DNA of 63,997 nt, filler included, from Basidiobolus ranarum (taxonomy: Eukaryota), in the NCBI GenBank assembly GCA_040143965.1. It is 11 parts of 11 records of this genome, joined end to end, with 100 filler letters (N's around TTAATTAATTAA, not from the genome) between each part and the next. Parts side by side here need not be neighbours in the genome. Positions count along the whole stretch, not along the records: positions 41,229 to 47,001 come from JASJQH010008377.1; 10 more parts are not named here. One strand, 5' to 3'. The notes below the pieces were generated by a model. The model had not been told where the DNA came from and did no database searches. It saw only the letters and a list, made by a program, of their open reading frames with translations. Below are positions 5,803-60,078 of this stretch, piece by piece. Position numbers and translations under genes: made by a program. Position 1 is the stretch's first letter, and each line of letters begins with the position of its first letter.

Positions 5803-5902
5803 NNNNNNNNNNNNNNNNNNNNNNNNNNNNNNNNNNNNNNNNNNNNTTAATTAATTAANNNNNNNNNNNNNNNNNNNNNNNNNNNNNNNNNNNNNNNNNN
5901 NN
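5803..5902. other. Artificial 100-bp contig spacer; also at 11701-11800, 17593-17692, 23481-23580, 29368-29467, 35252-35351, 41129-41228, 47002-47101, 52874-52973, 58745-58844
   Basis: N44-TTAATTAATTAA-N44 (stops in all frames). Contig lengths between spacers fall monotonically: 5798, 5792, 5788, 5787, 5784, 5777, 5773, 5772, 5771. Confidence 0.99.
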
Positions 5903-11700: not shown

Positions 11701-13838
11701 NNNNNNNNNNNNNNNNNNNNNNNNNNNNNNNNNNNNNNNNNNNNTTAATTAATTAANNNNNNNNNNNNNNNNNNNNNNNNNNNNNNNNNNNNNNNNNNNN
11801 TAGATTGCTTACATCTTGACAAAACTATAAATGTCAACTTTCAACTCAATAAATCAACAAGTGAAAACCACCAATTTCTCTAATTCTCCAAACCACTTCC
11901 GACAGGCTCCCAAATACTTTAACAAACCTCAATATCTTCCTATGCTAAGCACTTTTTTCAACATTCTGCACTGTTGATGTAACTGTACTAATATTATTAA
12001 GATGGTAAAGTATATTAGTACATATCATTTGATTAAATATGTAGTGATGGGTTTCAGCACAACAGCTAAAAATACATGAGAATAAATACAACAACATCAG
12101 TAATATATTAGAAGAAGTTTAATTTTATGCCAATGTAGTAGCACCAGCAAAGACTCTGTATTTGAAAAACTATATCCACAAGGAATAGCTCTGAAAATTA
12201 GTTATCACCAAAAAACCATGAAAACTAAGCAGTATATAGAGTTACAAGAGCGTATGCCATATAGGAATTTCTCTTATTTCAGTTTTTAATGTGCATGCTA
12301 CGAGGTAGATTCATTATGCGTAGCTATGTAATGAACAACATTTATTTGATTGACTCCAAATGCTTCCTATTCACTGCTTGTATATATTCTTTTATATATT
12401 GCGTTCTTATTGATATATGATTCGAATAGATTCAGAATCTCATTTGTATTCATCCGAATAGTAGGATTTCTATATCACGTAGCAGTAGTTAAATTATGAG
12501 CATTTTTCTATACTTTTGAGCTGAACATACATTTACTGTCATTTCTAAAGATTACGCGCCCATATATATACACATTTACAGAGAGTGATTTTGTTTTCGC
12601 ATGGATAAGTAAATGGACCTGTCAGAGCAAAATTCACAACCTGTTACTTGATACTTCAATTCATTGTATTTACGCTTAGTACAAAATAAAACAGACATTA
12701 TCTGCAGTACATAGATTCTCGATGTCATGCTACTGTTTGACATTTTACTACTGGACTGGTTCAATATAGCAGGGGTAAAAGTAATACCGTCCTTAATACA
12801 AATCTATTAGGCAATGTGTACTTGCACTTGTAATATCGTTGCAATATATATTGTCGCTATAGCAGGCTTCATCCAGAAATTTAGTCATAGATCTTTCAAA
12901 TAGATGTGATTAATTTCATTTGACAATGTGAACTTTTATCGGGAACAGAACCGGTAAAGTGATCCGATAAATGGTGTGTATATATTCCACAAAGGAATAT
13001 TTGTTTATTTATAGATACATTTGAAAGTTAAAAAATTGGAACTTGAACGATGCATTTTCCTTTCTCTCGTAAATCAACCAAGAATAACGAGCAAAAATAA
13101 TGGATTGATGACGTTTTATTCTTAAATTAAAGAGACATTCAAACAACAGAATTTCGTTCACTACTGTAGTTCAACACTAAGCTCTTTGGTAGAGTTTGTT
13201 TGCTCTTGCACTTGATTGTCCTATGAGTCGATTCATTAATTGACATACGTGCTCTACTAGTCAATACGGCATAAACATTGATGCATAAGTTAAGAAGAAG
13301 CAAAATATTTACTGGAGTAATTCTCCAATTGGTGGACATGGTATTGAATTCGTAACAATGAATATGAATCGCGAAGTACAAAAATCTGAGTAGTCAAAAT
13401 CTATTTAGTCTAATTAGCAAAAGCAATCGCCACCAATGTTGCACTGGCGCTGCCTTCTGAGCGGCATACTGTTTGTACTCATATACTTAAAAGTATCGGT
13501 TTGTAAACAAAGTAGTTGGTACGAGAGTTAATTGGCTAAGTCACTTCCAATAACGAAGTATCATAAATCTCCATTAATACCAAGTTTATGTACATTAAGC
13601 TACCAAATCCTCGACAAAAATGGAGGCAGATTTAATTATTTTGCCATATATGGCTCTGCGGTCATACACCAATTATAATAGTTATCAATAATCAATTACT
13701 TATTTTCGTGTCACCACACTATTACTTATAATAAATTCATCTCGCGTACAGACACTTTTCGAACCCATCTAGAGCTAGGTTACAGGTTAACACTCGCTTA
13801 ATTCTCCATCGTAATTGCAACAATTTCATTTCCTCCTC

Positions 13839-29952: not shown

Positions 29953-31273
29953 CAAGTACTGCTTCCCCATTAAAAAGGTGTAAATTACATATTGGGCCAT
30001 GCACTATTGCCATATCTCGGTATCAACTATTATGAATACTGGTGTGTATTTTCCTTTTCCGGGTATTCATAATGCACTCTATATGACGAGAATGTCTAAT
30101 ACCTTGTCATGGCAGGTACCTCATATCGTACTGTTTTAGTAAACGGCAGTCGTTAGGATTCTCTATTTTGTCGATAAAAAATATCGAATATGAAGGTAAC
30201 ATCGTTCATTGGGTCTTGGTTTTCAAGTGATTGAGTACAGCATGCTACTGGAGGAACCATGAAGTATTTGACTCTTTTCCAACATCAATATATAAAGTTT
30301 AAGGTTAGAGTACATTCGAGTGCATATTTGAATGTGGTAAATCTTATTGCTGATCAAATCACATTCTGTACTAACATCATCAACCCTTTCTTGTGGTTGT
30401 TGGTATATTCAACTTTCTTATCGTCACTTTTATCATAATTACACTTAGTACTAACAGTACATTTACTATATTCCAGTAAATTTACTGCAAATCATAACAT
30501 GCTTGCAATTGTGCATAATCCTTGAACCCTTTCCCAAGTCAGCTCATATTTAGTATTTTTGGTGAATATACTCGAGGGAGAGAAGTCAAATCAGATAACA
30601 GGGTTAGGGTTAGAGCTGAAAGACAACAAATCCAGTTCATAAAACGCTGCTCACTACAATGTCGAGTTAGTCGCTGACTGAATTTCGATAGAACAAATCC
30701 TAATTGCGTTACTTCACAAGTACCTAATGCATATAAAGCATGGTGCATTTGCTAAAGTGGTATCAGTAGTACAATTCCCGAATCTACCTCTTTTTTCTTA
30801 TCTGAATCATGCACGAAGAGGGTTTCTCCAATCAATTAAGCAATACTGGGCATTTTCGCTGATAAATAGGACGAATAATTACTAGATATAGTGATTTTAT
30901 CACACTCCATCAAATCCAATTTTAGCTCCTGAGTAACTTGGGATGAATGTGAGTGGGAAAACTATCAGATAATAGGAACAAATCTATTGGTCCATAGTCG
31001 CACTGAAATTTTAAAAACTGAATCAAGTGGTGAGAATATTGAGAGAAACCTAGATCCAGACAACATTTTTGGAATTCTACTTTTGGCATGATTCAAGTCT
31101 ATTAAAATGGCTGTTTATTTGGGGGATATATTGAAGCTATATTAGAACGGTTATTTTATACTAGTAAACATGATGTGTGCTAGTCAATATGATCTTTAAA
31201 TAACCATTGACTTATCTTACCAAACCAGCATGATATTAGGGGTAAAGTAAAAGGGCGAATGAACTAAGCAGGC

Positions 31274-32961: not shown

Positions 32962-35031
32962 GATGTTGCGGTCAGGAAAAGTAAATTTAAAAGTATGTTT
33001 AACTTAGAGGGGATGCCATCATTCTGAATTCGGAGCGCCACCTTTATACAACACAACGAGTAGGGGTATCCCTAGCCATTTTGACAGAAAAGAGCGGTTG
33101 GAACACCGGCAGCCAAGAAGTAGACAACCTTTCGGTGCTCCGATTGGTAGAAGCCAAGGACAAGTAACATCTGATAATAGCACACTTCTAAAGTCGTACC
33201 TATGGGGAAAGCTGTATAGAGTATGTTTCACTTTATGTGTATTCAAGTCAGATCGTAATAATCAGATCATCACAGATAAAGTATTATCAGATTGATTTCG
33301 TTAACCAGATTAATCTTCAACATTGTTGACTGGACACTGAGGTGCCTCCAGGTTTTTCATGATTTGTGCTGATTATTGTACACTTAACAATGTAATAAGT
33401 GGCATATTTAATAACTAGATGGATCTATAGACCGTAGTTTTCTATATAGCCAGGTTTTTTGAAGGGTTATCGCCTTTATTATAACTAAAGGAGTAATCGT
33501 TACATTGCTTAATGGAGTAATGCAGGATGATTTGACAAGCGCTTGGTAGTACTCCCATTTAGAAATAAACTCAACACAATGATTTTACTTGTTTATACTT
33601 TAACCGTAGGGTTGTACTTTGCAGGGTAATTGATATTACGACAATCAGTAAGAAGGTTGCTAGAATCTTAACTCTAATTTGTACACACAGTTCAAGTGCT
33701 CTCAGGTTTAGATGCGGAATTTGCGCCTATTTAGTGCAACTATTCATCGCATGGATCATATCATTATATCAGAATATGTGACAACCAACGCGCATTACCA
33801 TTTGTGAGAGATTTATATGCACTCACTGGTATCTAAAGCTATGCTGCTTGGATAATTCTAAAGATTGACTACATTTTATTGGCAACAGATTGAACTGATA
33901 ACCCAATAAGCATGTATCTGTCGTTTTTTTTCAAATTCTTTACGCTCTTACTCTTTACCAGTTGGATATTTGTTTGATACATTCAGTCACATAATTACTC
34001 TTACTCCATATATATTACATCTATTTCTTAGAATATTCAACCATAGGGTACACAGGTTTGGAATTGGGATTGTGCATTCACTACCAGGGTTACGGATCAG
34101 GGATTGCAAATATATATTGTAAATTTTTGATGAGCATCCAAGGTTTGTGCAAGTCAAACTTTCCATTGTGCAGCCTCCAATATGGTATACTAGAGTTACA
34201 TTTTTGATGTTAGTGAATGTTACTACAAGTCCTAATTTTCCTCCGTAATTGCCCGTACTGCCTTCCTGAATAGTTGTTCAATGACTTACATTTTTGTACA
34301 GTCCGTACCAGCATTTCTAGTAATGCTCATTATAGTACTTATTTCCAGATTCTGTGTATTATTACCACTGTTGGTTTACATTTACCGCCAATCTTTCATT
34401 TTCAATACGCTAAACACTGAGTATTGATGAAAGTTAAGGAATGGAGCACACTAGCTTAGAAATTACTCTTAGTATGTAGGAGCTGCTTTACATGGAAAGA
34501 GAAATAGCTTTGGTAAAGTTGGGGTGAAAAAAAGTCATATAGTGGCATTGCCAAAAGACATAAAGGGCATAATACGTTACAAGTGATGAAAATCTTGGTG
34601 GCATTGCGAAATATTGCACCGCAAGAGTTTGTTATATGTGACATAAATATTGTAAGTAATGATATACATCAGTAACGCTCTCAGTAATCACCAACATTGT
34701 ATCGAATTTAAAACCTATTATGGAGTCTCCCCTCAATACCAATTTTATTTATGACCATCCCTCATATACATATACTCGAACTAACCCTAACCCAATTCCG
34801 GTCTCTCTGGCTCAAAATTTCGAATCTTGTGGATTATATCTAAGAGTAATCTTAGTGTAAGAATGGTTTGAACAAGTGGTTTTTTTTATCAAGTAGTTCT
34901 ACTATGAATTATATGTCTGTATCATCTTTATGAGAGTCGATTCAATGTTGAAGAGTAGACACAAAGACAGATACTTTGTAATATTTTGACATAGATTAAA
35001 AGGTTAATATGCTTCAATGTAATGTGGTTTA

Positions 35032-40595: not shown

Positions 40596-42011
40596 CTTGA
40601 GCTGCTATGAGTAGCTAATCATTGCACATGATTGTTAAGCTGGTGTAAAGAATATGGTGGATGTATCACAGTTGAAAAAGCAAAAACAACATTTCAAAGC
40701 ATCACAGCCATCAGAGAGTAGTTGAGGGATGACATGATGGTTAGGTTGAGCTAACAAATAAATAACAGAGTTGTGTATTGGTCGATTACAATATCCACAC
40801 CAATACCAAGCTAGTATTCCAGTCACATCAATAGACTTGTTCCATTTTATTGAGCCAGATCAGGCCAGCTAAAAAGTGTGCCAGTACAAGTTGGCATGAT
40901 TGGGCACTATCTGGCACAATGTTATTTACCATTTTGGAAACAGTTTGTTTTACTTATGTGGTATGTTTAAGAAAAGTACTTTTAGACATTATTGCACATT
41001 CAAAAGATGATGAAAGCATTATTCATAGTGTCTTAAGTCTAGAGCTCTCAATGGATATCTTTGAGTATGGATGTATTGAGAATTAATCAAGATTTTGACT
41101 ACTTTGCCTAACTTTGATTGAGGCCCACNNNNNNNNNNNNNNNNNNNNNNNNNNNNNNNNNNNNNNNNNNNNTTAATTAATTAANNNNNNNNNNNNNNNN
41201 NNNNNNNNNNNNNNNNNNNNNNNNNNNNGACAAAACTATAAATGTCAACTTTCTACTCAATAAATCAATAAGTGAAAACCACCAATTCCTCTAATTCTCC
41301 AAACCACTTCCAACAGGCTCCCAAATACTTTAACACTTTCAAATACATATCTGTTTTGGTTGAGATATTTTTAAAGTGCTATTTAATCCTCCTAGGTTCT
41401 CTTCGTAAATATTACTTTTTTGATCCCAATGCTATTCCCTCTTCTCTTATGTTGTGTATTATCTCGTTTAGCAAAGGTCAGATGCTTCAACAATTTTGGT
41501 TACTTCTCAATGAGAAATTAAAGATGCCAAACTACGCAAAGATACAATTTATGTGTCCAAACTTGGAAAACATAAGAGAAAATTAATCCATTGCGACTCA
41601 GCACTAATTAACATTGTGAGGAGTTGTGGGGGCAGGAGACGTGATTTCTAATTTTAGGCTTTTTTGGATTCTAATCAAGCTACGATAATCTATTTAAAAA
41701 ATATCAGCAACCATATTCTACATAGAGTTTGGAATGATGATTACGTATCCCACAACTAAGCACACATACCAATCATGTATTATCTACCTAGAAATGACTA
41801 AAATTCCCTTGGTCGCTTAAGAATAATTGTGATTTAGAGATTGAAGAATATCAAATTTTGAGCACCAAAGATTGAACTGCTACCGCAGTCAATCCATCTA
41901 CTGCGCATGATGGAAATTTTTTACTTCGGGTGCGCCTTGATGGATGAGATATTTGAATTTGTTTCCTACACATCTTTACATCTTCATTCTGAACACTTTT
42001 CATAGTACAAT

Positions 42012-43077
42012 ATGGCTCAACAAGCTGCTAACTTTCTGAAAGGCAATGGTAAATCCATGTTTACCGGTGTCGGTGCTCTAATTACCTTAGGTACTTTAGG
42101 CTATGGTGTCAATTCTGCTTTGTTCAACGGTATGTCTTCTTTCTCGAAATCCCTAGTTCTTTGTATGTCTGTATTCTAACCAGTGAGCTACAATAGTTGA
42201 TGGTGGTCATAGAGCTGTCAAATACTCTAGAATTTTCGGTGTTCAAAAGGAGATTTACCAAGAAGGTACTCATATTGTCATTCCTTGGCTTGAGACTCCT
42301 ATCATCTACGATGTTCGTGCCAAGCCCAGAAACATTGCCTCATTGACCGGAACCAAAGGTCAGTATCATTGTGACTGGTGTCTTATAAATATCCTACTCA
42401 CATTTTACTGTCAGATCTCCAAATGGTCAACATCACCGTTCGTGTTCTGTCGAAACCAAATGTTGATGCTCTTGATACCATTTACAAGACTCTTGGAACT
42501 GATTATGATGAGCGTGTTTTGCCTTCCATTGTTAACGAAGTCTTGAAGAGTGTTGTTGCTCAATTTAATGCTTCTCAACTTATTACACAGCGTGAGAGAG
42601 TTAGTAGACTTGTCCTTTATAATCTCCTCCGTCGTGCTCTTCGTTTCAATATCGTCTTGGATGATGTTTCCATTACTCATGTTGCTTTCTCTCCTGAGTT
42701 CTCTACTGCAGTTGAAGGTAAACAAATTGCGCAACAAGAGGCCCAAAGAGCTTTCTTCATTGTCGAGAGTGCCAAGCAAGAGAAGCAGTCCACCATCATT
42801 AAAGCTGAGGGAGAAGCCCGCTCTGCTGAGCTTATTGGTGAGGCTATTCGTAACAAGCCAGGTTTCATTGCTCTTAGAAAGATTGAAGCTGCTCGTGAAA
42901 TCGCCCACATTATTGCCAACTCTAACAACCGTGTTATGTTGGATGCTGATACTCTCTTGCTCAATGTTCAATCCAATATGTAAGTGGTTGATTTGTATTG
43001 ATGTCCTTTTTTCTTCATTTAACCTTATACCTTTTTGTAGTTCTCCCGCTACTACAGTCATTCCTGCCTCTCAGTAG
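42012..43077 (+). CDS. PHB2: Prohibitin 2, 4 exons
   Basis: MAQQAANF...[16 protein letters not shown]...[35 protein letters not shown]...[32 protein letters not shown]...[11 protein letters not shown]. Introns at ~42130-42196, 42359-42414 and 42980-43040 (last one tentative). Confidence 0.95.
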
Positions 43078-43449: not shown

Positions 43450-45132
43450 GAAGATTTACTAATAATGTTGAAAATATTCCCAATAATCAATATCAAGCAC
43501 ATGATGAGTGATGATAGGTAACCATGCTTATCTCCAGTTGTTGAAGCTATTTACCAGACGAATGTCCCACACTAAAAGACCATCTATTTCTCAGTTTGTT
43601 CATTTTCCGAGTGATGACAGTAAGTATTGGTGGGGTATATTCTAGAGGCCCTCCACATAGTTCATGTTACTAGGATTACTCACACCAGGGCTCTCAAAGC
43701 TGATGGCGATGGTATCACCTCGGACAACTAATACTTCATGCTCCAACTAGTAAGCTCTTTTAATAAATTGAGGCCATCAGACACCTTGGTGCAGCGGGTT
43801 TCATAAAAAACTACACGTTCATTCTAAGGGTCGAACATGCTAAAGATTGTTCTACCGTTGATAATTGTGTCAATTGGAGCTGTACTTGCAAATCTAAGAG
43901 AAATATATTGGTAAATCCAGACTTTCACAGTCAGTATTTAAAAATATCGAACTTTCTTGGGTGAATTTGTTGATGTGTACCAAGGTGTCTATTCTGGTGG
44001 CATTTTTCTTACTTCATTTCAGCTGTCCAAGCATGTGGTTTAGCATGAGACACCATGTCAAAGTAGTGGTTTTTGCATAACATACTGGTCCATTTCAGTC
44101 TAGTAATGGTTTCGTATTAATTTCGTTAAAAATACTCACCATCTCCACCTATTGGTCCAGTAGTGTGGTTTCCTACAATTACTGGAGTTGTAAAATGAAT
44201 GATTTCAGTTGAGATTACCTGTACGAAATGCGCTCGATGACATTACTTTCACAATCATCACTATGAACGAATCATGTTCTACCAAAGAGTTCGGAAATTG
44301 TCACGCATGGAAGCGGTGATAGGAAACCAATATCGTACTGTTTCTACATTTGAGTAACTGTAGGTGCTCATTGCCAACATACACCAGCCATGAACTTGTT
44401 GATTTACAATCTTCCTATGATCGCAATCCTGAATGTTCGTAAAAATAATCAAGTAACAGGTCAATGGGAGGGAATGTAACTTCTCCAGGAACACCTAGGG
44501 TTCATATCTATTTAGGATGACTCACCAAAGCCCACTTATCGCAAGATACATTCAAGCACTAGAGCCAAGTGTTTGATATTAAAGCAAGTGATGCAATTCT
44601 CCGCATTGATTTTCAACTGATGTGTCATTCCTACCAGCCCTTTGGAGATGATCCTAGATGCTGGTTGCTCAGTACACAAGTGACAATAGCTTGGTTTAGT
44701 TTGAAGGAATATCTGCTTGGCCATATGCTTGATATTGTGTAGTTCGTTATCAAGTTCAATACGATACGAGTAGAACACAGAATATATCCCCTTGAAAATG
44801 ACCATTGTAACATTATAAATAGGCATGTTAGTGAAGTAGGAACCAATACAACTCATTCCAATTTCTCCATCGGAAAAAATACCAGCTGGAGACCTCTCCC
44901 CCATTAAACTTCTAATCGGAATCATGCCAATTAACGATTTGTTTCTAAGCATCGTCGATGCTTTCCCTAATAGGATGTCCACCATATTGATGCCATCATA
45001 CCACCCGCTAGTGCCAGACTTGAGTGAACTAATCACTGATATTGGCCTCAATTTCCACTGAACGTAATCGTTGATATCAGCTCCAATCTCCACTGAATGG
45101 CCTGAAATTAAATGTTCGTTGTTTTGAGTCAT
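43450..45132 (-). pseudogene. Decayed gene remnant of uncertain identity
   Basis: 198-aa open stretch with weak ankyrin-like words (GADIN, MVDILL), then broken frames including a GHSSG (GxSxG-like) motif near 43560. Confidence 0.25.
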
Positions 45133-45346
45133 AAAAATAATTCTATCACGGCCAATCCCTATGTTTCTCGATAAGGGCCCAAACGCCTCTGATGATGCTG
45201 ATCCTCTGGAGAGCTGGTAACCTCAGATAGCTTTGATTCGTTTACTGTCGTTGAGTGATTAAATTAGCAACATTGCCAACTATAAAGAACCAGGTTGGTT
45301 CCTCCTGAATTCATCATTCATTAAACTCACAAAGGGTCCATTGAAT

Positions 45347-45850
45347 ATGTTCTCAGCATCTCCATCTCAAACAAACAACAGTGAGGGGAATTCACCCAGT
45401 GACAATAGTAACCCCATCACCCAAATCATACATCATACCGAGGAGTCACTTTCTGCAGTTTCATCGGACAAATGTCCACGAGACTCTCAAGAAGTATTGT
45501 CAGAACCACACAACGATCAATCAAAAAATCCTCAAAGTTGCCCTGAAGGAACTAGTCAAAAAGATTCGTATGATCCAGTACAGTTTACAACCATCAGAAG
45601 TAAACGTTCACGCCAGGATTATGACCAATCGAATGATATCTCCGAACAATATCCATACAAACAAGTTGATATGCTTGCCATTGACAATCAGATATTGAAG
45701 TCACACCATCCTGCACCCATGAACGCCAACGTAGAGCATAGCTTTGCACTTTCATTGTCAATTAGTCATAAAGTCATAGGAAGAAACCGCTCAAGACAAA
45801 GCAGTCAAAAGCGTATTTTTGGCTCTTTATTGCAACGCTTGAGAGCCTAA
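45347..45850 (+). CDS. Hypothetical low-complexity Ser/Gln-rich protein (167 aa)
   Basis: Open frame from ATG at 45347 with TATAAAG ~65 bp upstream; no recognisable domain. Confidence 0.45.
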   Translation: MFSASPSQTNNSEGNSPSDNSNPITQIIHHTEESLSAVSSDKCPRDSQEVLSEPHNDQSKNPQSCPEGTSQKDSYDPVQFTTIRSKRSRQDYDQSNDISEQYPYKQVDMLAIDNQILKSHHPAPMNANVEHSFALSLSISHKVIGRNRSRQSSQKRIFGSLLQRLRA

Positions 45851-46545
45851 ATGCGCAAACACCTCTTATACATAGGAAGTTGTTGCAGTGCCATGTATAT
45901 ATATACACTTTCCTCTTTGTAAAATCAAATCCTTAGATAAAACTGTGTTACATATCAATAGCGTATCTGATTTACGAAAATTCTTTCTGCGATTCATCAT
46001 CATGACTACAAAATTTTTAGTCAGTTCCTTAATTTTATTACGCAACGCGGTAATTCTTAAGCCAATAACTACGCTTAGAGGTTTTGTAAACATTTGTAGA
46101 TATGGTTGTATGATTCATATACACACAGAAACAAGTTTGCTAATGCTACCGTTGAAAACACCAAGATCTTAAGAAGCCATGGTAAATACTAGTGCGCTTG
46201 ACTGCATAATCCGTGCTTCATGGGCAGTCATAGGTTGCATACCGTAAACAATACGACTTGTATTAAGCTCACACCTGACAGGTCATTTTTGTTTGCAAAG
46301 ACCTAAGATACCATAAATGGAAGAATACATCTCTGTAACTCACCATGCTCTCTTCCAGGTTAGAGGGTATCAAACGGTTCAGTTAAGTGGAATCAAAAGA
46401 CGGTACCGTAATTTTGTTGGCAGTAGTAGCAGTAGGGTTAGGGTTAGTATTGAGAATCACTTACTGTGATCAATCTTGTAAAGGAGTAAAAAGTAGAATG
46501 GGATTGTTATGGAATCCATCTACCTACATATCCATCCATACCTGT

Positions 46546-46625
46546 AAGAATCTTTAAATTCGCTCGCCAGAGCGAGGAACAACCACATTCTAGGTGGCGC
46601 GTTGTCCTGTTGGACAAGAGAAGAT
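46546..46625 (-). ncRNA. Candidate Fanzor omega-RNA scaffold
   Basis: Minus-strand hairpins TTGTCC-AACA-GGACAA, GCCAC-CTAGAAT-GTGGT and TCGCTC-TGGC-GAGCGA. Loop AGAAT (46591-46587) is complementary to ATTCT (46551-46547). Overlaps the 3' end of the Fanzor ORF; boundaries are inferred. Confidence 0.6.
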
Positions 46626-47001
46626 ATCGGGTCGTTCATTCCCGGACCAGTTGGGTTGAAATGAACATCATATTTTTAGCCGCAAGCACGTCTCGATTTC
46701 AAAATATATTACAATCGTTGCAGATCAATATATTGTAAAAGGTACGTTCTTGGACTCTATGGTATCTTAAATTTCTTTGATGGCATTCACAGCAAACCTA
46801 ATTAAAAGAAAAATTTAGACACTTAAAGTTACATAAAACTTGCAAAGATACCTACGGACGATGTCCTGAACTCATTAATGTCCAGTAGTAATAGTTCCCC
46901 TTGTTTTTCACGCTTTTTGAGATTTTTGTAAATCAGCTCGGAAGCTCCTCCTCTTCTTCCTCTAAACCTCGCGTAGGTACTTCCTCTCAGACCATCCCCG
47001 A
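46554..47001 (-). pseudogene. Fanzor1 (eukaryotic TnpB-family RNA-guided nuclease) 3' end, with one intron; disrupted copy, 5' part lost at the gap
   Basis: Exon 46999-46856: GDGLRGSTYARFRGRRGGASELIYKNLKKREKQGELLLLDINEFRTSS. Intron 46855-46798 (GTAGGT...TTAG). Exon from 46797: VCCECHQRNLRYHRVQERTFYNILICNDCNIF*NRDVLAAKNM, i.e. RuvC-II Glu, a CxxC/CxxC zinc finger and RuvC-III (W)NRD..AA.N. After a frameshift near 46650: WSGNERPDIF. Confidence 0.88.
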
Positions 47002-47101
47002 NNNNNNNNNNNNNNNNNNNNNNNNNNNNNNNNNNNNNNNNNNNNTTAATTAATTAANNNNNNNNNNNNNNNNNNNNNNNNNNNNNNNNNNNNNNNNNNN
47101 N

Positions 47102-47652
47102 AAGGGTAGCTTCTGGTGGTCCCTTTGGCTCTATTTCTTCTCCTGCAACAAATCCCCAAAGGTTCTTGTCTTCTAGCACCATTTGCATCTTGAACTTCCA
47201 AAGGTGAAAGTCTTCAACATCAAACTTCACAGTGGATGCAAACACTTTGGTAATAGTACTGGTAGATATTCCTCCAACAGCTAGCTTGGGGTTCACAAAG
47301 TGATAGAAGTGTTGAGGGGACTTGAAAGTATTTTGGACAAAATTTGGATTTGTGAATTGGACTCTGAAGTTTTATTGAATTGAATCTGTCCTGTTTATAG
47401 TTAACTATGAAATAAGACTCTTGGTTGTGCTTAGATCATAACAAATATGCCTGCTAAGTGTGGGTGGAAATTTGAGATGATTTGCAGAAATTTTGCAAAA
47501 ATAGTGAAAAATGGTAAAAGTGATCTAATTGGTATTTCTATCAATTTGTGCAATAAACATACATTTTTGAGTGACAGAATTGTGTGCTAAATAATCATAA
47601 TATGAATAAACCATCTACTAAATAATCAGTTGCTATTTACCTAATTTCAACA
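47102..47652 (-). mobile_element. Ty1/copia 5' LTR (47301-47652, family A) plus start of gag
   Basis: 352-bp LTR, TGTTG...TATCA; gag VKFDVEDFHLWKFKMQMVLEDKNLWGFV. Confidence 0.92.
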
Positions 47653-48353
47653 CTTTCCACTACAGAAGCGGAGTATATGGCTGCATCTGCTATGACACAA
47701 GAAGCAATTTGGTCAAGGAAGTTATTTACAGACTCAGAATACATCAAGGAATGTGCAATTACTGTATTTGAAGATAATTAAAGTTGTATTGCACTTGCTA
47801 AGAACCCAACATTGCATGCTAGAACAGAGCATATAGATAATAGGCAATGTTTTGTTAGAGAAGCAATAGAATTGATAACATTGAACTTGTCTATTGCCCT
47901 ACTGAAGCAATGATTGCTGACATCCTAACCAAGCCTTTAGCTAAGGCACAATTTGAATTATTAAGATATAAGTTAGGTTTAAGAGATATGCAAAATAATT
48001 AGTTAGGTGGGAATGTTGAAATCAGGCAAATAGCAACTCATTATTTAGTAGTTAGTTTATTCATATTCTGACTATTTAGTAATCAATTCTGTCATTCAAA
48101 AACATGTGTTTATTGCTCTGATTGATAGAAAAATCAAATAGATCACTTTTGCCAATTTTCACTATTTTCTCAAAGCTTCTCCAAATCAGCTCAACTTTTA
48201 CCCATGCTTAACAGGCATGTTTGCTATGATCTAAGCATGTCCAAAGGTCCTATCTCATAGTAAACTTAAAATAGGACATATTCAAATCTATAAAACCTGA
48301 GTGTCTAGTTCACAAATCTAAATCTTCTCCAAAACCCCTAAACACTTTTATCA
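47653..48353 (+). mobile_element. Ty1/copia RNase H, PPT and 3' LTR (48014-48353)
   Basis: LSTTEAEYMAA, FEDN*SCIALAKNP, HARTEHID and MIADILTKPL; PPT AGGTGGGAA; LTR TGTTG...TATCA. Confidence 0.93.
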
Positions 48354-49763
48354 AGTGAGATATTTTTCTCAGGCCTGCATAGGTCATAGTGAATCAGGGC
48401 AAAATATGGAGTTGATATGATCTCTGCAGAGCTTGAAAAGGCTGTCTGTGAAGTTTTTCATATATGCAACCTTTACACAGATCTAATTAAATGATATTTC
48501 CAACTTGTAAGCCAATAAGATGCTGCTTTTGGATCACTTGAGTCAATTTGTGTTCCCCCACATGCCCTAATCTTCTATGCCACATTTTACAGCTTATTTT
48601 GCCATTTTGTCTAATTTTGCATGCTCAGAATGCAATTTGTAGATTACTAAATGTTATAAGTTGTGAGATTTGTTCTAGCAGCTTATTTGAAACATATTTA
48701 TCTGTGATAATACATCCAGCCTTGTTGTACACAAAATTTAGTCCTTGAGTTGTTGCTTGGCTTACTGAGAGTAGATTCTAGGTTATATTTGGTACATATA
48801 GTACATGATCCATTTTTGCTGATGGTGTAGCCAAATGTTGGTCCAAATTGGGCACAACTGTGCTGTTGCTAACTGCATCTAGTGCACGGTCTCTACCTAA
48901 GTAGACATTCCTTGTTTCAATGGGTTTTAAGCTGGAAAACCAATCTTTCTTGTTAGACATATACTAGGAAGCTCCTGAATCAATGTACCAGGTTTCAGAG
49001 TTTTTTTCAGTTGTTACTGATAGAGCAGACATTAAGAGATGATCCCTATCAGTGCTTGCTTGATTTGCTTGTTGCAATTTTAGCTTTTTGGCAAAAACCC
49101 TTTTCCTGCAGTCCTTGAATGAATGGCCTGGTTTCTTGCACTACAGTGGATGACCTTTAGTCTCATACAGTCCCTCAAGTATTTTCTGTGCACTTTGGAT
49201 GTTTTGGCTGACTCTATGTGTCTCAATTGAGAGTCTCTGAGTTGTGGACAAAGTGTGGAGAGTGCTTTTCTATGATTTTTGTTTATGACCAGGATAGCTT
49301 CTGGTGGTCCCTTTAGCCCTATTTCTTCTCCTGTAACCAATCCCCAAAGGTGCTTGCCTTCTAGCACTATTTGCATCTGAAATTCCAAAGGTGAATGTCA
49401 TCAGTGTTTGGTAATAAATGTGTTCAGGGGACTTGGATATGTTTTAGGCAAGATTTAAATTTGTAAATTAGACACTGTGGTTTTATTGAAATAAATATGT
49501 CCTATTTGTTGCTTACTATGAAAAAGGATGGTTGGAAATGCTTAGAACAACACAAACATGCATATTAAGCATAAGTGAAAGTTTGAGATGATTTAGAGAA
49601 GTTTTGAGAAAATAGTGAAGATTGGTAGTGGTGATCTAATTGGTCTTACAATCTGTTGGAGCAATTAATAGATATTTTTGAATATCACAATTGAGTGCTA
49701 AATAATTGGAGTATGAATTAGTTAACTACTAAATAATGAGTTGCCATTTAGCTAACTTCTACA
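48354..49763 (-). mobile_element. Ty1/copia gag-pol remnant with 5' LTR (49412-49763)
   Basis: gag MQIVLEGKHLWGLVTGEE; protease WYIDSGAS; WHRRLGH; HYDLC. The 352-bp LTR belongs to family A. Confidence 0.9.
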
Positions 49764-58744: not shown

Positions 58745-60078
58745 NNNNNNNNNNNNNNNNNNNNNNNNNNNNNNNNNNNNNNNNNNNNTTAATTAATTAA
58801 NNNNNNNNNNNNNNNNNNNNNNNNNNNNNNNNNNNNNNNNNNNNCTTGTTTAAGAAAGTAGACAAACATTTTAAAGAGCAACATGGATATAGAGATAGAC
58901 AGAGGCTGGAGCACCAATATACAACCACATTCCACTTGTCTAATAATCATACCGAGTGTTGGATATCCTCACAATATCTAATCCTCATGCCATCAAAGCT
59001 CGGCTTTCGGATATCGACGGTCGGCTATGGGGGAATCATGGAGTTAAATCATTCATTGCCCAATTTAGAAAAGGTAGAACAACTATTCCAATAAGGTGAT
59101 TCAGTCAGAATTATGGATTTGGCTAGTGCAAGTCCTTATTTATTATAGAATTTGGCTAGTGTATGGCTATTAGTATATATATACAATTAGGCTAGTTCAT
59201 TTCCTTAGTTCGATTAGATTAAGTGGCTTTGATGGTAAATCCAAATATATGCAATATGTCTCGTTATGCATGTATGCTCATGGAGTTTTCGTATACATCT
59301 AAGTCATTGAAACCATATAAATACTGAATGTACCAGATGTTCCTTCTTCCCCCACATTTTTTGTTAAAGCTAGGTCTAACGGCGATATGGCCAATAAGAA
59401 TGCAATAGAGGCCTACAAGTTTGGATAAAGATAGCACATGGATGATACTCCTTCTGTATGTAGATAACACCTACAACTCTAATCGATAATTCGCATTTTT
59501 ACATCGATCGAAATAGTTCATCCTTTCAACGATCTCCTTTTTGATACCCATGTGAGGGTGAGGGGGTTTTTTCAACTAAATAATACATTTCTCTAATTCA
59601 TCACCGTCATATCAGAAAAACTATTGGTTTCATGCATTCTTCTGAATCAATTCCAATCCTATGTTTCTATATTATATAATTTACCATAGTAACCTTGCAC
59701 TTTCTCTCTCTCTCTTTCGTACAAATTTCACTTTCTCTTTTATATAGTAGCATTTGTGAATTGCCGAAATACATCCTCTCAAACATATCATTGTTTAGAG
59801 TACAAGCACAAAGAATAGCCATTCTCTTTTATATAATGTTAATTGTCCAAATTTGGCTAGCCTGAGGAATATACATATTTGCAGACAAAGACATCTTTAA
59901 ATTTATCGTAGTTACTGTACGTATAAGATTATTTGATATAGTCGTCTTCTCTGAGAATAGTGAATTTACGGTTTCAACATTTTTTTAGGGGGATTAATAT
60001 TTTGTTCGAAGCCAACTAAGACTTCCTTATTAATTGAGCTAAACGTTAAACCACTCTCATAATAATACTTGGATAAAA

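Follow-up and report, generated by a model that had tools for sequence, protein, structure and literature searches.

A probable decayed Fanzor1 gene end at the edge of a contig in a Basidiobolus ranarum assembly

A gene fragment at positions 46999-46556 (minus strand) of the Basidiobolus ranarum DNA analyzed here, a stretch of 63,997 bases that we call the window, can be assigned with high confidence to the last third (the last ~130 codons) of a decayed Fanzor1 gene. Fanzor1 proteins are eukaryotic, transposon-borne homologues of bacterial TnpB. The fragment retains a Gly, a Glu, a zinc finger and an Asp in the right order. As assembled, this copy is dead: a stop codon has replaced a conserved Trp, the reading frame changes twice, and the 5′ part is cut off by the contig end. 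The nearest protein found by database search was P0003, a 256-residue hypothetical protein of Rhizopus microsporus with 88% identity over 94% of the exon 2 query. Longer relatives were P0004 (789 residues) and P0005 (590 residues, Benjaminiella poitrasii).

Gene structure and lesions of the fragment

The window comprises eleven contigs in descending order of length, from 5,802 down to 5,771 bases with the last one shortened, and since it is a chain of contigs joined by linkers, adjoining contigs are not genomic neighbours. The linkers at the ten sites (5803-5902, 11701-11800 and so on to 58745-58844) are all identical (N44-TTAATTAATTAA-N44). The Fanzor fragment lies at the high end of the contig at 41229-47001, which stops 1-2 bases upstream of the motif GDG; here the linker at 47002-47101 severs the gene, and the DNA past this linker belongs to an unrelated contig. 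Because the contig ends at 47001, the fragment lacks everything upstream of RuvC-II, namely REC, WED and RuvC-I. The contig ends inside the Fanzor gene, perhaps in the way that assemblies often break within repeats. When this contig was compared with the window by blastn, only a 107-bp repeat at its far end was detected. Its two copies (41229-41335 and 11818-11924; 96% identical) open two different contigs or lie close to their first bases, as would be expected if contigs break in repeats.

On the minus strand, the fragment begins with a piece of exon 1 from the RuvC-II region (46856-46999, GDGLRGST...LLLLDINEFRTSS), which has 82% identity to P0003 138-186 by tblastn. GDG is encoded by GGG GAT GGT at 46999-46991, and its first codon (46999-46997) is the Gly that is nearly invariant in the family. 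The Glu of INEF is GAG at 46873-46871, and the last codon of exon 1, TCC, ends at 46856. A phase 0 GT-AG intron of 58 nt follows at 46798-46855 (GTAGGT...TTAATTAG), with its GT at 46855-46854 and its AG at 46799-46798. Exon 2 starts with GTT at 46797 and translates from there as VCCECHQRNLRYHRVQERTFYNILICNDCNIF. The first part of this exon (46702-46797) encodes the TNB zinc finger VCCEC...ICNDC, in which both CxxC pairs are present (CCEC at 46794-46783 and CNDC at 46722-46711). An in-frame TGA at 46699-46701 then takes the place of the conserved Trp of WNRD, a residue found in 18 of 25 aligned family sequences, and is followed by RuvC-III (46651-46698, NRDVLAAKNMMFISTQ), where AAT CGA GAC encodes NRD with the Asp codon at 46692-46690.

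The first frame change lies at 46647-46650, where a CTG Leu codon and a TGG Trp codon share two bases and where tblastn pieces in different frames end at 46648 and begin at 46649. In the second frame, the conserved segment after RuvC-III, WSGNERPDIFS (46617-46649), is identical to P0003 236-246 at 10 of 11 residues and aligns with ...DGHGRPEVFSR of the Fanzor1 protein SpuFz1. The second frame change, at 46613-46616, consists of four bases where relatives have one codon. In the third frame, the C-terminal tail QQDNAPPRMWLFLALASEF (46556-46612) matches P0004 774-787; homology to P0004 ends here, and the frame runs to a stop at 46522-46520.

A preliminary description of this DNA had read GDG and a 58-nt GT-AG intron on the minus strand and had placed the Glu, the TGA and the Asp, and on direct reading every coordinate it gave was found to hold. 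It had also called the gene invisible to the ORF track, which agrees with pieces of 48, 32 and 20 codons in different frames. Of the lesions it had proposed, the TGA at the conserved Trp and the frameshift near 46650 both stood, whereas the second frame change had been missed.

Relatives provided independent evidence for the intron. P0003 is continuous across the proposed splice point (EFKTSS|VCFEC), so that the junction is also the one chosen in an independent gene model. In P0161, a relative known as an unspliced ORF call, a 20-residue in-frame insert was found at the same point, with Val (GTN) as its first residue and Gln as its last; going by its sequence, this insert is what a 60-nt intron would look like when read through. 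Furthermore, the two introns of a prohibitin-like gene on the same contig are 66 nt (42131-42196) and 56 nt (42359-42414) long and both GT-AG, so that an intron of 58 nt is typical of the host.

In the living genome, the copy is presumably a pseudogene as well. It is unlikely that the organism has an intact copy and that all three lesions arose through faulty sequencing or assembly of a small contig with poor support. Although the contig is indeed one of many leftovers of ~5.8 kb chained together and ends inside the gene, three independent lesions within ~90 bases argue against such errors, and the one at the conserved Trp is a stop of the substitution type and not an indel. The prohibitin gene on the same contig is clean through its exons and has proper GT-AG introns, and relatives in the database are likewise mostly short or partial, both of which favour decay of the gene itself. 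Decoding of the TGA as Trp by the organism was also considered and rejected, since stops are standard in the nuclear genes of this contig and both frame changes would still be there; a code with TGA as Trp served solely for reading through in searches.

Relationship to Fanzor1 nucleases

A HMMER search with P0004 over 1.84 billion representative sequences returned 1190 relatives at E ≤ 1e-3, including 523 at E ≤ 1e-10 and 91 at E ≤ 1e-30, most of which are fragments. Among the matches listed, all named relatives belong to Mucorales (Rhizopus, Mucor, Thamnidium, Cokeromyces and Benjaminiella). Twenty-two of the 150 matches listed, chosen for coverage of the C-terminal half, were aligned with P0003, P0004 and P0005, giving an alignment of 25 sequences. 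In this alignment, the Gly and the Glu are each kept in 23 of 25 sequences and all four Cys in 16 of 25. Eleven of the 25 sequences retain every one of the nine columns that were checked (D, G, E, four Cys, W and D), which indicates that the lineage includes apparently intact members.

When the profile of these 25 sequences was searched against the PDB, the best match was SpuFz1 (E = 1.9e-23), followed by PpFz1 (4.7e-10) and the mimivirus protein L79 (5e-10), with LaTranC, TnpB, Cas12f and GtFz1 (8e-4) lower in the ranking. Searched singly, P0004 matched SpuFz1 at 5e-9 and the mimivirus Fanzor2 L79 at 5.5e-5, and SpuFz1 was the sole PDB match of P0003, in three colinear stretches. P0003 also passes the cut-off of the Pfam family PF07282 (Cas12f1-like TNB domain; 28.6 bits against 26.3). 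An AlphaFold2 model of P0004 built on the 25-sequence alignment reached a mean pLDDT of 82 and a pTM of 0.76. In a Foldseek search of this model against the PDB, ranks 1-7 were all Fanzor1 chains, of SpuFz, then PpFz, then GtFz (E from 9e-21 to 5e-14). SpuFz was the best of these (E = 9e-21, TM by target 0.72-0.73), while the first match outside Fanzor was AsCas12f (9e-5) and Fanzor2 appeared at rank 34 (4.6e-3); 17 matches had E ≤ 0.001. The predicted fold of the relative P0004 (REC, WED, RuvC and TNB) therefore points to a Fanzor1 rather than a Fanzor2 or TnpB architecture. With PF07282 found in P0003, and with full-length relatives matching SpuFz1 in both sequence and predicted fold, the proposal that the fragment is a Fanzor1 gene end is upheld.

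To place the catalytic residues, we used the triad given for SpuFz1 by Xu and colleagues, D383, E541 and D606 (Xu et al., 2024, PMC11423790). The PDB chain of SpuFz1 is an MBP fusion, and a single offset of 394 places the three residues at D777, E935 and D1000. Chain residue D777 aligns with P0004 D491 within CTVDPGRRD, E935 with P0003 E180, which is the GAG at 46873-46871 of the window, and D1000 with P0003 D221, which is the GAC at 46692-46690. The RuvC-II Glu and the RuvC-III Asp named in the preliminary description hence fall on E541 and D606, and the Fanzor order of motifs it had recognized is correct. Upstream, the RuvC-I motif C(T/F)(L/V)DPGR was found in P0004, P0005 and the four close relatives that reach this far: P0159, P0162, P0163 and P0164 have C(T/F)LDPGR, and P0004 and P0005 have CTVDPGRRD, aligned to SpuFz1 D383. 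In Fanzors, the canonical RuvC-II Glu is described as replaced by Pro or Gly, with another conserved Glu ~45 residues away (Jiang et al., 2023, PMC10530073). In the fragment, the Gly at 46999-46997 and the Glu at 46873-46871 are 42 residues apart. This spacing, together with the P0004 model, where the Gly ends strand 651-657, suggests that the Gly of GDG occupies the canonical TnpB Glu site. The rearranged RuvC-II, the CxxC...CxxC zinc finger and the RuvC-III Asp were each found in the fragment.

In intact members of the family, the rearranged active site would consist of an Asp in RuvC-I, a Gly or Pro in place of the TnpB RuvC-II Glu, a replacement Glu just before CxxC...CxxC and an Asp in RuvC-III. 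Such proteins would be omega-RNA-guided double-strand DNA endonucleases with one RuvC: an intact protein is predicted to bind its omega-RNA, to recognize a TAM and a target complementary to the guide, and to use its one rearranged RuvC site for cleaving both strands.

Near the N-terminus of P0004 and P0005, a basic stretch is followed by a Cys/His motif (CxxC...GH...CxNH; residues 36-54 of P0004), which was modelled at only moderate confidence and could be a zinc knuckle.

An origin from Fanzor2, from an IS607-type TnpB or from a giant virus is very unlikely for the fragment. L79, a Fanzor2, does match the family profile on a par with PpFz1; however, the similarity to L79 is confined to the shared TNB/RuvC-III end, and SpuFz1 alone matches across both the RuvC-I/helical part and the C-terminus. 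The fold search separates the two groups in the same way, with its first seven ranks filled by three Fanzor1 proteins and Fanzor2 far below. The host-type spliceosomal intron and the nearby housekeeping gene also argue against such an origin.

Homology of the fragment was also demonstrated directly on the window. By tblastn, three colinear pieces of the window matched P0003, with E = 4e-43 when taken together; they pair P0003 138-186 with 46999-46853 (82% identity), 181-235 with 46812-46648 (80%) and 236-246 with 46649-46617 (91%). A family profile of 24 members, from which P0003 was left out, was then run on every stop-to-stop ORF segment of the window that has 20 codons or more, 2058 in all. 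Only 3 of the 2058 segments had E < 0.001, and these were exactly the three pieces of the fragment: exon 1 (4.7e-16), the first part of exon 2 (7.7e-5) and RuvC-III (2.5e-4). The three matches are colinear on profile positions 297-345, 345-376 and 378-395, and the next best segment had an E of 1.7. Against the family profile, the fragment read through with an X for every break reached 143.0 bits; of 500 shuffles, 346 scored at all, the best of them at 2.3 bits. Similarity to RuvC/TnpB folds, which the preliminary description had proposed, is thus found through this score and through the match of the family to SpuFz1. Chance resemblance of a zinc-finger-like ORF scrap unrelated to RuvC nucleases can be dismissed on these numbers, even though the pieces are short and remain below Pfam thresholds by themselves (exon 2 alone reaches 17.6 bits on PF07282 against the cut-off of 26.3, E = 0.0043, and exon 1 alone has no relevant Pfam family).

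Surroundings of the fragment

The Fanzor fragment lies ~3.5 kb from a housekeeping gene, the prohibitin-like gene at approximately 42040-42983 (plus strand), which was recognized by Pfam Band_7 in two exon ORFs (E = 3e-15 and 2e-6). Two long ORFs lie between them. The one at 44536-45222 (minus strand) has no Pfam family and no usable ESM Atlas match. The other, at 45263-45850 (plus strand; 195 codons, rich in Ser, Gln and Asn), also has no Pfam family, and its feature leads (BESS and MADF) were all below 0.9. From residue 29 on, the ESM Atlas already contains this ORF among its predicted proteins, with a pLDDT of 0.50. Neither ORF could be linked to a transposase through Pfam or the ESM Atlas.

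The gene is presumably of transposon origin. Within the contig at 41229-47001, the search for terminal inverted repeats and other repeats gave only short pairs at chance level, and no target site duplication was found; if there is an element, its 5′ half would be located past the end of the contig. No second Fanzor copy was detected in the window by tblastn with P0003, P0004 and P0005. A search for related DNA in metagenome contigs with a single-protein query gave 99 pattern matches and 0 confirmed loci.

For SpuFz1, PpFz1 and GtFz1, it is established that the gene's 3′ end, together with the transposon end, gives rise to the guide RNA, and by analogy the omega-RNA of this family would come from the gene's own 3′ end and the right end of the transposon. 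The predicted fold of 46700-46380 did not stand out from shuffles (z of -1.18, with 15 of 100 shuffles as good), and an Rfam scan of the contig gave no match at E ≤ 1. A scan for bacterial promoters and terminators stayed at chance level; such signals are irrelevant to a eukaryote.

A telomere-like motif, TAACCCTAACCCTA, is located at 46433-46446 (minus strand), ~110 bases downstream of the Fanzor homology. Copies with one mismatch lie on other contigs at 30599-30612 (minus strand) and 34782-34795 (plus strand). The three matches in the window compare with none in 100 shuffles, and the flanks of the copies are unrelated.

The next contig in the window carries pieces of a Copia-type LTR retrotransposon at 47102-49397 (minus strand). 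Retrotran_gag_2 (E = 2.7e-6) and the GAG-pre-integrase domain (E = 1.7e-7) are above the Pfam cut-offs there, and Retrotran_gag_3 and DUF4219 are below them. Gag-like stretches occur twice (47102-47371 and 49080-49397), possibly from two copies or from a nested one.

Known Fanzor systems and significance

Among known systems, SpuFz1 of Spizellomyces punctatus (PDB 8GKH, 9CEU-9CEZ) is the best match of the family in sequence and in fold. The two share the D in DP(G/N)xRD, the E in (D/N)E(F/Y)xTS before CxxC, the D in WNRD and a GRPxxFSR tail. However, identity over the fold alignment with P0004 is 14-15%, SpuFz1 is from a chytrid whereas the named members of the P0004 family are from Mucorales, and P0004 is longer (789 residues) and has the N-terminal Cys/His motif; the copy in the window is a broken fragment. 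PpFz1 of Parasitella parasitica (PDB 9CF0-9CF3) is also a Fanzor1 from Mucorales and has the RuvC/TNB end in common with the family (profile E = 4.7e-10, fold E = 2e-16), but it is farther from the P0004 family than SpuFz1 is. TnpB (ISDra2 and ISFba1) and Cas12f have the same RuvC and TNB zinc-finger core and PF07282 (profile E from 1e-4 to 1e-2, fold E ~1e-4); the canonical TnpB has Glu in RuvC-II where the P0004 family has Gly. TnpB is prokaryotic and without introns and resides in IS200/IS605 or IS607 elements. For PpFz1, a Fanzor RuvC insertion (FRI) domain has been described, which the relevant passage of that article reports only in Parasitella and Rhizopus (PMC11423790).

Fanzor1 families have been listed before for Mucorales: four in Rhizopus oryzae RA 99-880 (ROr-1 to ROr-4), 10 in Mucor circinelloides and three in Phycomyces (Bao and Jurka, 2013, Table 1, PMC3627910). 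ROr-4 is recorded there in MuDR-like elements with 9-bp target site duplications (PMC3627910). Going by the description in that source, ROr-1 to ROr-4 are of the same protein class as our fragment, which differs in that no terminal inverted repeat or target site duplication was found at it within the contig. Fz1 is also described as highly spread in fungi (Saito et al., 2023, PMC10432273). With Fanzor1 of Rhizopus and other Mucorales in print since 2013, the fragment is an ordinary pseudogene piece of a known kind of gene.

The value of the finding lies mainly in annotation: careful reading can recover a Fanzor1 gene end that is spliced, broken and overlooked in ORF lists. The fragment also flags a repeat family that is likely to break assembly. 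We tentatively suggest that it marks a Mucorales-wide Fanzor1 lineage of the P0004 type, nearer to SpuFz1 than to PpFz1, and that an intact and active copy may exist in the same genome, together with an omega-RNA, a TAM and a carrier transposon of its own. To our knowledge, no member of the P0004-type lineage has been tested biochemically. Fanzor1 nucleases attract attention as compact eukaryotic genome editors, and although the copy in the window is unusable for this, an intact member of the Mucorales lineage could merit testing.
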